In this document: piece by piece, positions 52,608-53,515 of the stretch
Numbering within the stretch: position 1 is the stretch's first letter
Layout: each line of letters starts with the position of its first letter
NCBI RefSeq assembly: GCF_003334815.1
Contig: NZ_QOWO01000010.1
Reading direction: 5' to 3' (one strand)
Length of the DNA stretch: 64,000 nt
DNA from: Escherichia coli
GTDB lineage: Bacteria > Pseudomonadota > Gammaproteobacteria > Enterobacterales > Enterobacteriaceae
The notes under the pieces: generated by a model
Databases searched by the model: none
The model's input: only the letters and a program-made list of their open reading frames with translations
Told to the model about the DNA's origin: nothing
Made by a program: the position numbers and the translations under genes

Positions 52608-53030
52608 AAAATAAGTCCGGACTGCGGTAAATACCCGTCCGGACTTATTGCCAGCTCAAACCAACGTTAATAGCCATCCTAAAATAGACGAAGCGCCAGC
52701 CAATTCCCGCAGCGCGTCTAGCGTCATCAGGATTATAAGTACCCAAATAAACGGATTCATTTTGCTGTGTGTCATTTATTACTGATGCGCAGTTATTCTA
52801 CTGCTTTGTAAGTAGTAAAATAGTTAACCCGATCAAGACTACTATTATTGGTAGCTAAATTTCCCTTAAGTCACAATACGTTATTATCAACGCTGTAATT
52901 TATTCAGCGTTTGTACATATCGTTACACGCTGAAACCAACCACTCACGGAAGTCTGCCATTCCCAGGGATATAGTTATTTCAACGGCCCCGCAGTGGGGT
53001 TAAATGAAAAAACAAATTGAGGGTATGACA

Positions 53031-53339
53031 ATGAAAAAAGTATTAGCTCTGGTTGTTGCCGCTGCTATGGGTCTGTCTTCTGCCGCCTTTGCTGCAGAGA
53101 CTACGACCACACCTGCTCCGACTGCGACGACCACCAAAGCAGCGCCGGCGAAAACTACACATCATAAAAAACAGCATAAAGCAGCACCTGCCCAGAAAGC
53201 GCAGGCGGCTAAAAAGCATCATAAAAATACGAAAGCTGAACAGAAAGCCCCTGAACAAAAAGCGCAGGCAGCGAAGAAACACGCCAAGAAACACAGCCAT
53301 CAGCAACCGGCAAAACCTGCTGCACAACCCGCAGCGTAA
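53031..53339 (+). CDS. asr: Acid shock protein Asr (track ORF starts at 53004)
   Basis: Signal peptide then low-complexity K/A/H/Q-rich repeats; recognised sequence. Confidence 0.9.
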
Positions 53340-53431
53340 GTTTTCAACAGTAATGCTGGCGCGCCCCCTCGCGCCTGAAAATTACGGTGCTAAGCGGGTA
53401 ACGTTTAGCACCGCCTTTAGCGGAGGGTAGT

Positions 53432-53515
53432 ATGGTGGGCCGTTATCGCTTTGAGTTCATTCTGATCATCCTTATTTTATGCGCACTGATTGCCGCCCGT
53501 TTTTATCTTTCCTGA
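53432..53515 (+). CDS. ydgU: Small hydrophobic protein YdgU (27 aa: MVGRYRFEFILIILILCALIAARFYLS)
   Basis: Short ORF below track threshold; single hydrophobic helix; sequence recognised. Confidence 0.6.
   Translation: MVGRYRFEFILIILILCALIAARFYLS

Follow-up and report, generated by a model that had tools for sequence, protein, structure and literature searches.

The asr gene has been under study since the 1990s, and ydgU has been present in annotation since the mid-2000s. The mgrB gene is monocistronic, in contrast to ydgU (samT), which is the second gene of its operon and lies behind a hairpin. The function of ydgU was published in July 2026 by Mathis de Fromont et al. (NAR 2026, PMC13425233), who describe the product, SamT, as a small protein that inhibits the sensor kinase RstB. 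That work, in which the gene is renamed samT, found a strong two-hybrid interaction between YdgU and RstB; the assays used overproduced fusions, and weaker signals were obtained with PhoQ and EnvZ. The feedback was lost in phosphotransfer mutants, and ydgU alone complemented. Asr was found to give positive and SamT negative feedback, each independently, and the two feedbacks were genetically separated (PMC13425233).

The closest described relative in function is the MgrB-PhoQ pair. Both MgrB and SamT are single-pass inner-membrane peptides of fewer than 50 aa that are under response-regulator control, bind the cognate kinase and damp signalling, a parallel drawn by the SamT authors themselves (PMC13425233). 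SamT has 27 aa and almost no periplasmic tail, whereas MgrB has 47 aa with a Cys-containing periplasmic region, and BLASTP of YdgU against an MgrB sequence gave no alignment with E ≤ 100. SamT is a functional analogue of MgrB and not a member of its family. A second likeness is to the ugtS-ugtL operon of Salmonella, encoding modulators of PhoQ, which resembles asr-samT in pairing a positive and a negative modulator of its own two-component system; UgtS works by antagonising UgtL, whereas Asr and SamT are independent of each other (PMC13425233). The spacer between asr and samT can further be likened to operon-internal leaky terminators, in which a GC-rich hairpin and a U-run stand between a highly expressed gene and a gene of low need.

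The window analysed here, which is the whole stretch of DNA of 64 kb, carries the gene order ynfM–asr–ydgU–ydgD at 52.5-54.1 kb, with asr, ydgU and ydgD on the + strand in both the RefSeq and the K-12 records (Table 1). Of 5,426 complete E. coli genomes, 5,423 gave a megablast match to a 1-kb query from this locus, almost always in single copy and at 95-100% identity. The locus is the asr-samT operon of E. coli K-12 described in PMC13425233, with nothing essential different. The asr gene agrees with b1597 in length and position, and ydgU coincides exactly with b4601 apart from one changed residue (A21 here, T21 in MG1655), the window deriving from a non-MG1655 E. coli. The RstA box, both Shine-Dalgarno sequences and the 92-nt spacer are likewise shared with K-12. 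The identification of the region as the acid-inducible operon asr-ydgU (asr-samT), working by the mechanism set out at the end of this report, is regarded as close to certain. The operon and the function of ydgU were already known, and the only mildly new element is the conserved hairpin in the spacer, which is analysed here and on which the main text of PMC13425233 is silent. A search of 51000-55000 returned no Rfam match at E ≤ 1, leaving the leader and the spacer without a known RNA family. A reading of the region as a defence system was discarded, PADLOC giving zero hits for Asr, YdgU and an upstream ORF of 39 aa (34 aa) at 52656-52775 that K-12 leaves unannotated.

Table 1. Positions of the asr-ydgU features within the window.
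Feature	Position	Strand	Remarks
RstA box TACATATCGTTACA	52914..52927	+	asr promoter
Probable -10 hexamer TATAGT of the asr promoter	52970..52975	+	TATAGT-like block kept in cross-genus alignment A3
asr leader motif GGCCCCGCAGTGGGGTT, possible 5' stem-loop CCCC/GGGG	52985..53001	+	cross-genus conservation
asr Shine-Dalgarno GAGGG	53019..53023	+	7 nt before ATG 53031; read from sequence
asr CDS	53031..53339	+	309 nt, 102 aa; RefSeq and NC_000913.3 annotation
asr signal peptide	53031-53093	+	part of asr CDS
asr mature protein, disordered, K/A/T/Q/P/H-rich	53094-53336	+	stop codon 53337-53339
Antisense ORF, 94 aa, TTG start	53043..53327	-	register of asr codons; by-product, not gene
+1-frame ORF, 125 aa, TTG start	53053..53430	+	by-product, not gene
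Hairpin 1, GGCGCG-CCCCCT-CGCGCC, C-rich loop	53358..53375	+	from spacer folds
Hairpin 2, 12-bp stem CGGTGCTAAGCG/CGTTTAGCACCG, loop GGTAA	53385..53413	+	inverted repeat I3; dG -20 kcal/mol
Weak U-tract CCTTTAGC after hairpin 2	53414-53421	+	followed by samT Shine-Dalgarno
ydgU/samT Shine-Dalgarno GGAGGG	53422..53427	+	4 nt before ATG; read from sequence
ydgU (samT) CDS, 27 aa (MVGRYRFEFILIILILCALIAARFYLS)	53432..53515	+	b4601 in K-12

The deduced sequence of Asr scored 102 bits against NCBIfam NF033636 (cut-off 50) and matched Pfam PF06392 over residues 22-102 with an i-E of 5.6e-12. The N-terminus is signal-peptide-like, of the Sec type, with an AFA-A cleavage-type motif at which the cleavage site is predicted. 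The mature part of 81 aa is composed of A23, K17, T11, Q9, P8, H8, E3, N1 and S1, with no other residues. The two family matches confirm the gene as asr, the name given in the preliminary description made from the sequence of this DNA, which has a signal peptide followed by repetitive units rich in K, A, H and Q; the mature part is basic and of low complexity.

The four open reading frames listed in that description (53004..53339, 53053..53430, 53043..53327 and 53432..53515) are all present at these coordinates. The first of them takes asr from the first ATG, at 53004, as a protein of 111 aa, and this start had to be corrected: the accepted and conserved start is at 53031, giving 102 aa. The upstream ATG is in frame with asr, has GGGG 4 nt upstream and is chosen by some gene callers, as database proteins with the extended N-terminus show. 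Nevertheless, a 111-aa precursor starting at 53004 is highly improbable. The MKKVL start with a GAGG-type Shine-Dalgarno sequence is kept in 79 of 82 loci drawn from many Enterobacterales genera, whereas an in-frame ATG at -9 codons occurs in about one quarter of the 82, in some Escherichia, Citrobacter, Salmonella and a few others. Most genera lack that ATG or have it mutated or out of frame, and it has disappeared from other Escherichia as well (loci L007, L036 and L039). Both RefSeq and the K-12 annotation give 102 aa, and nine extra hydrophilic residues would bury the N-region of the Asr signal peptide. Mutagenesis attributed to Seputiene et al. 2003 is said to have shown that the Asr preprotein has 102 aa.

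The two other long frames within asr are explained by the protein that asr encodes. A stop in the +1 frame needs a T at position 2 of an asr codon; since mature Asr consists only of A, K, T, Q, P, H, E, N and S, no codon from 21 onwards has T at that position, and the +1 frame is therefore open. A stop in the antisense frame needs TTA, CTA or TCA in the sense codons, and codon 5 of asr alone qualifies. When Asr was recoded synonymously, all 5,000 of 5,000 recodings left stop-free runs of at least 87 codons in the +1 frame and at least 71 codons in the antisense frame. Since openness survives every recoding, the length of these ORFs is no matter of chance and tells nothing beyond the protein sequence of Asr. 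Repetition of the nucleotide sequence, to which the open frames had earlier been ascribed, is modest, the sole array found by TRF being 12 nt x 2.5 at 53269-53299 and the repeat search yielding a 36-nt pair of 78% identity, 63 nt apart; the cause is instead the amino-acid composition of Asr. In five gap-free Escherichia orthologs pN/pS was 0.14 in the asr frame, where 39 of the 57 variable columns fell at codon position 3, compared to 1.48 in the frame of the +1 ORF and 0.70 in that of the antisense ORF. The view that both ORFs are artefacts was thus upheld, in that the recodings keep both open and neither frame shows selection of its own, and it is well supported.

That one or both of these frames code for real overlapping proteins is scarcely credible. 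Their length is unusual (125 and 94 codons), they are open in other species too, and asr RNA is so hugely abundant in acid that leaky initiation, or frameshifting at A-runs, would give product; both nevertheless start with TTG, and their openness and their pN/pS values have the explanation given above. The +1-frame text is also found within database entries. Proteins of 141, 110 or 94 aa named 'Asr' consist of the Asr N-terminus fused at A-runs to +1-frame text ending at 53430, and comparable frame-switched entries occur in Salmonella and Klebsiella. This is the pattern of frameshift or homopolymer error and not of independent genes, and the long chimeric entries are products of such errors, accepted by gene callers because the +1 frame is without a stop. 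A reading of the 141- and 132-aa 'Asr' proteins as repeat-number variants was rejected, since they are frameshift chimeras. It follows that a stop-free +1 frame lets a frameshifted asr pass as a long 'Asr' protein in public databases, and that a biased protein composition can force very long alternate open frames, which are not to be scored as overlapping-gene candidates.

The 27-codon ORF downstream of asr is a different case. YdgU scored 70.3 bits against NF052476, 'small membrane protein YdgU' (small_YdgU; PRK14758; cut-off 24), and 74.5 bits against NF011341 (cut-off 66), in each case over positions 1-27 of 27. The sequence comprises a basic N-terminus, MVGRYRFE, with R4 and R6, a transmembrane helix FILIILILCALIAA at residues 9-22 and a 5-residue C-terminal tail; the mean Kyte-Doolittle hydropathy of the 14-residue core (residues 9-22) is 3.46. 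This layout fits a single-pass membrane peptide of N-in orientation, the N-terminus being predicted to be cytoplasmic. For comparison among species, an Asr alignment was used to fetch one asr locus per species from 100,044 genomes, and short ORFs were searched with phmmer. In approximately 72 of 80 Enterobacterales loci asr is followed on its own strand by a homologous ORF of 26-27 aa, usually 59-146 nt past the asr stop. Homologues, all of them with a GGAG-type Shine-Dalgarno sequence, were found among others in Citrobacter, Salmonella, Klebsiella, Enterobacter, Leclercia, Serratia, Yersinia, Pectobacterium, Erwinia and Brenneria; they share the motif R-Y-x-F-E-h-h-L...C-[AG], with a hydrophobic stretch containing an invariant Cys. 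In 54 sequences pN/pS was 0.34 in frame versus 1.05 and 1.36 off-frame, and column entropy peaked at codon position 3. Judged by this pattern of substitution, ydgU is a genuine gene under purifying selection.

The contrary reading, that the ORF arose by chance within the 3' UTR of asr and yields no functional protein, has a probability close to nil. The ORF is very short and lies behind a strong hairpin, T-rich DNA can give short hydrophobic ORFs by chance, and neither deletion nor overexpression of ydgU produced a single-gene growth phenotype at low Mg2+ (PMC11429745). Against this stand the retention of the ORF together with its Shine-Dalgarno sequence across many genera, the in-frame constraint, and ribosome footprints on ydgU that rise approximately 600-fold at pH 4.4 (PMC10746267). 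GFP-YdgU was found at the membrane in the Mg2+-starvation study, which also cites earlier validation by epitope tagging (PMC11429745), and samT alone is sufficient for complementation (PMC13425233). The membrane location, the match to NF052476 and the pN/pS value together confirm the single-helix membrane protein that the preliminary description had recognised in this ORF. Its remark that such small proteins are often missed by annotation does not apply to E. coli RefSeq, all sampled records of which have the gene, under three different names; in other gamma-proteobacteria ydgU is rarely annotated (PMC13425233).

Transcription of the locus is directed from upstream of asr. The RstA box there is the only perfect match to TACATNTNGTTACA within the 64-kb window, where 0.03 would be expected by chance; the RstA consensus and the canonical repeat at E. 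coli asr have been described (PMC4117788). A sigma-70 scan found no full promoter in 52600-53700, as would be expected if the asr promoter depends on an activator and ydgU has none of its own. The asr leader motif is kept in genera from Escherichia through Serratia and Erwinia, and Yersinia and Pectobacterium carry variants of it. RNAalifold returned no consensus structure for the asr 5' leader, and the conserved GGCCCCGCAGTGGGG motif does not qualify as a structure on that result. No terminator-like structure was detected in the stretch from ydgU to ydgD (fold z = +0.98).

In published expression data, asr and ydgU are among the three most induced genes at pH 4.4, and ydgU was placed in the asr transcriptional unit; the ribosome-protected fragments rose by a log2 fold-change of 9.68 for asr, to approximately 2% of all reads, and 9.22 for ydgU, the RNA of which rose by 12.39 (PMC10746267). 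Ribosome profiling under acid shock, proposed as a check on translation of ydgU, had accordingly been done and the density found is strong (PMC10746267). Acid induction of both RNAs needs RstA, and canonical Shine-Dalgarno sequences were noted for asr and samT (PMC13425233). Co-transcription of ydgU with asr from the asr promoter, the second proposed check, is likewise already established in the literature (PMC11429745, PMC13425233). The reporters of the Mg2+-starvation study showed PhoQP-dependent induction when driven by the sequence upstream of asr, that just upstream of ydgU having negligible activity (PMC11429745).

The latter results bear on whether ydgU might be an independent unit with its own promoter in the spacer, its co-regulation with asr being only apparent. 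A terminator-like hairpin does stand between the two genes, the RNA fold-change of ydgU (12.4) exceeds that of asr (9.4) (PMC10746267), and an internal promoter in untested conditions was left possible by PMC13425233. Such independence is nevertheless very unlikely, given that the promoter scan found no promoter-like site, the hairpin and the Shine-Dalgarno sequence take up the last 48 or so nt before the ydgU ATG, the reporter activity maps upstream of asr and not just upstream of ydgU, and both RNAs are induced via RstA.

The 92-nt spacer between asr and ydgU folds at -46.7 kcal/mol (z = -3.3 versus shuffled sequence) and contains two hairpins. The first is of a type also present in the spacers of Citrobacter and Salmonella. 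In the minimum free energy structure predicted for the whole spacer, the CCCUC stretch of hairpin 1 pairs instead with the samT Shine-Dalgarno sequence, so that the C-rich stretch may sequester that site.

The second hairpin has 7 G-C pairs in its 12-bp stem. Each of the 53 loci examined has a strong hairpin whose end lies approximately 17 nt upstream of the samT start codon, with a median dG of -18.1 kcal/mol versus -8.6 kcal/mol at control positions. When terminator-like was defined strictly, as a perfect stem of at least 8 bp with at least 4 T in the next 8 nt, 34 of the 53 loci qualified versus 6 of 446 control positions. Different lineages have unrelated stem sequences: Enterobacteriaceae have CGGYGCU..., while ACACCCGG... 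is the type of Yersinia, Serratia, Pectobacterium and Erwinia; in the CGGYGCU-type stem five pairs show compensatory changes with pairing kept. A canonical U-tract follows in many genera, for example TTTTTTCT in Klebsiella and TTTTATCA in Yersinia, the Klebsiella tail past the hairpin reading UUUUUUCU. The group of Escherichia, Citrobacter and Salmonella has a longer stem and a degenerate tail. In E. coli the tail, CCTTTAGC, contains 3 T, where a canonical terminator would have 5 or more U among the first 8 nt past the stem, and the terminator scan made no call at the E. coli hairpin-2 site, where the U-tract (CCUUUAGC) is poor. The asr-samT hairpin is conserved in position across genera; it departs from typical leaky terminators in that the U-tract is degenerate in Escherichia and that the samT Shine-Dalgarno sequence begins only 8 nt past the stem.

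The position and conservation of hairpin 2 suggest that it is probably a leaky intrinsic terminator setting the Asr:SamT ratio. We infer that it may serve as the terminator of asr, with samT translated from read-through transcripts only, an arrangement that would explain how a single promoter can supply a great deal of a periplasmic protein and little of a membrane regulator. An even chance is given to the fuller proposal that the spacer hairpin is a tuned leaky terminator, possibly combined with sequestration of the Shine-Dalgarno sequence, whose action would fix the Asr:SamT ratio, or make it conditional, and thereby set the balance of positive and negative feedback on RstB-RstA. A terminator or read-through is absent from the main text of PMC13425233, where the differential expression of asr and samT is listed as an open question.

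In the mechanism that best explains the operon, acid, or low Mg2+ acting via PhoQP to raise rstAB, leads phosphorylated RstA to bind its box, upon which the asr promoter fires. The product of asr is a secreted, intrinsically disordered and strongly basic periplasmic protein that guards envelope proteins at low pH and exerts positive feedback on RstB-RstA. Some transcription passes the hairpin in the spacer and reaches ydgU/samT, and the hairpin, if acting as a leaky terminator, would leave Asr in large excess over SamT. SamT, a 27-aa single-pass inner-membrane peptide with the N-terminus inside, binds RstB and limits phosphotransfer to RstA, thereby closing a negative feedback loop analogous to that of MgrB on PhoQ.

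As a discovery the operon matters little, since the gene, its function and the experiments suggested for it were all published before. The conserved hairpin is a likely device for unequal output of Asr and SamT and, as such, a detail of the published feedback circuit. If it does act as a leaky terminator, the degenerate U-tract in the clade of Escherichia, Citrobacter and Salmonella would represent an evolved rise in read-through.

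Inspection of the 92-nt spacer between asr and ydgU (samT) revealed a hairpin directly upstream of the ydgU Shine-Dalgarno (SD) sequence that was present in all 53 loci compared. Defining a terminator-like structure as a stem of at least 8 bp followed by a T-rich tail, the hairpin was terminator-like in 34/53 loci, while only 6/446 controls showed such a structure. The stem sequences were specific to each lineage, with compensatory changes at five pairs, and the U-tract was degenerate in Escherichia. The second hairpin of the spacer, located further upstream, was common to the spacers of Escherichia, Citrobacter and Salmonella. 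In the MFE fold of the full spacer, the CCCUC of this upstream hairpin paired instead with GAGGG of the samT SD, a modeled interaction that could sequester the SD of samT. The spacer between ydgU and ydgD (53516-53614) contained no terminator-like structure (fold z = +0.98). A Ribo-seq study of E. coli reported a higher translation efficiency of ydgD at pH 4.4, with a log2 value of 2.16 (Table S4, PMC10746267).

Features in the vicinity of asr and ydgU, with coordinates in the window.
Feature	Coordinates	Strand	Remarks
Hydrophobic 39-codon ORF, MTHSKMNPFIWVLIILMTLDALRELAGASSILGWLLTLV	52656-52775	minus	between ynfM and asr
Probable -10 of asr, TATAGT	52970-52975		
asr leader motif, GGCCCCGCAGTGGGGTT	52985-53001		highly conserved; just 3' of the probable -10
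Upstream spacer hairpin	53358-53375		C-rich loop CCCCCT
Strong hairpin and tail	53385-53421		directly 5' of ydgU/samT SD; same position in Enterobacterales asr loci L003-L080

The asr leader motif occurred in variant forms in Yersinia and Pectobacterium. The mRNA may begin with a stem-loop formed by this motif; RNAalifold returned no consensus structure for the leader.

Public proteins of 141, 110 and 94 aa deposited as Asr (database entries P0004, P0017, P0029, P0048, P0063, P0065, P0072 and P0091) were found to be frameshift chimeras, in which a normal Asr N-terminus is continued, from an A-run onward, by the +1 frame (53053-53430), which is free of internal stops and terminates one base ahead of the ydgU ATG. 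The chimeras probably originated from homopolymer sequencing errors or frameshift alleles, and they escape pseudogene detection since the +1 frame contains no stops.

Codon 21 of ydgU (53492-53494) encodes alanine in the window whereas the residue is threonine in K-12 MG1655, results indicating that the window is not MG1655 itself. YdgU from other Escherichia was also variable at residue 21 and adjacent positions. A comparison of RefSeq E. coli records (H1-H29, L083 and L084) revealed the same 27-aa ORF under three product names, "small membrane protein YdgU", "stationary phase-induced protein" and "hypothetical protein"; samT was used in none of the RefSeq E. coli records compared.

The ORF between ynfM and asr matched the NCBIfam model NF033695, "KPN_01571 family protein", with 63.3 bits against a cut-off of 35. 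It is an annotated gene in many RefSeq E. coli genomes and absent from the NC_000913.3 annotation; no literature on the ORF was found. A 30-aa core initiated by MNPF was retained in loci of Escherichia, Citrobacter, Klebsiella, Salmonella and Raoultella/Enterobacter. Since this core is conserved across genera, the internal ATG, yielding a product of 34 aa, may be the true start.
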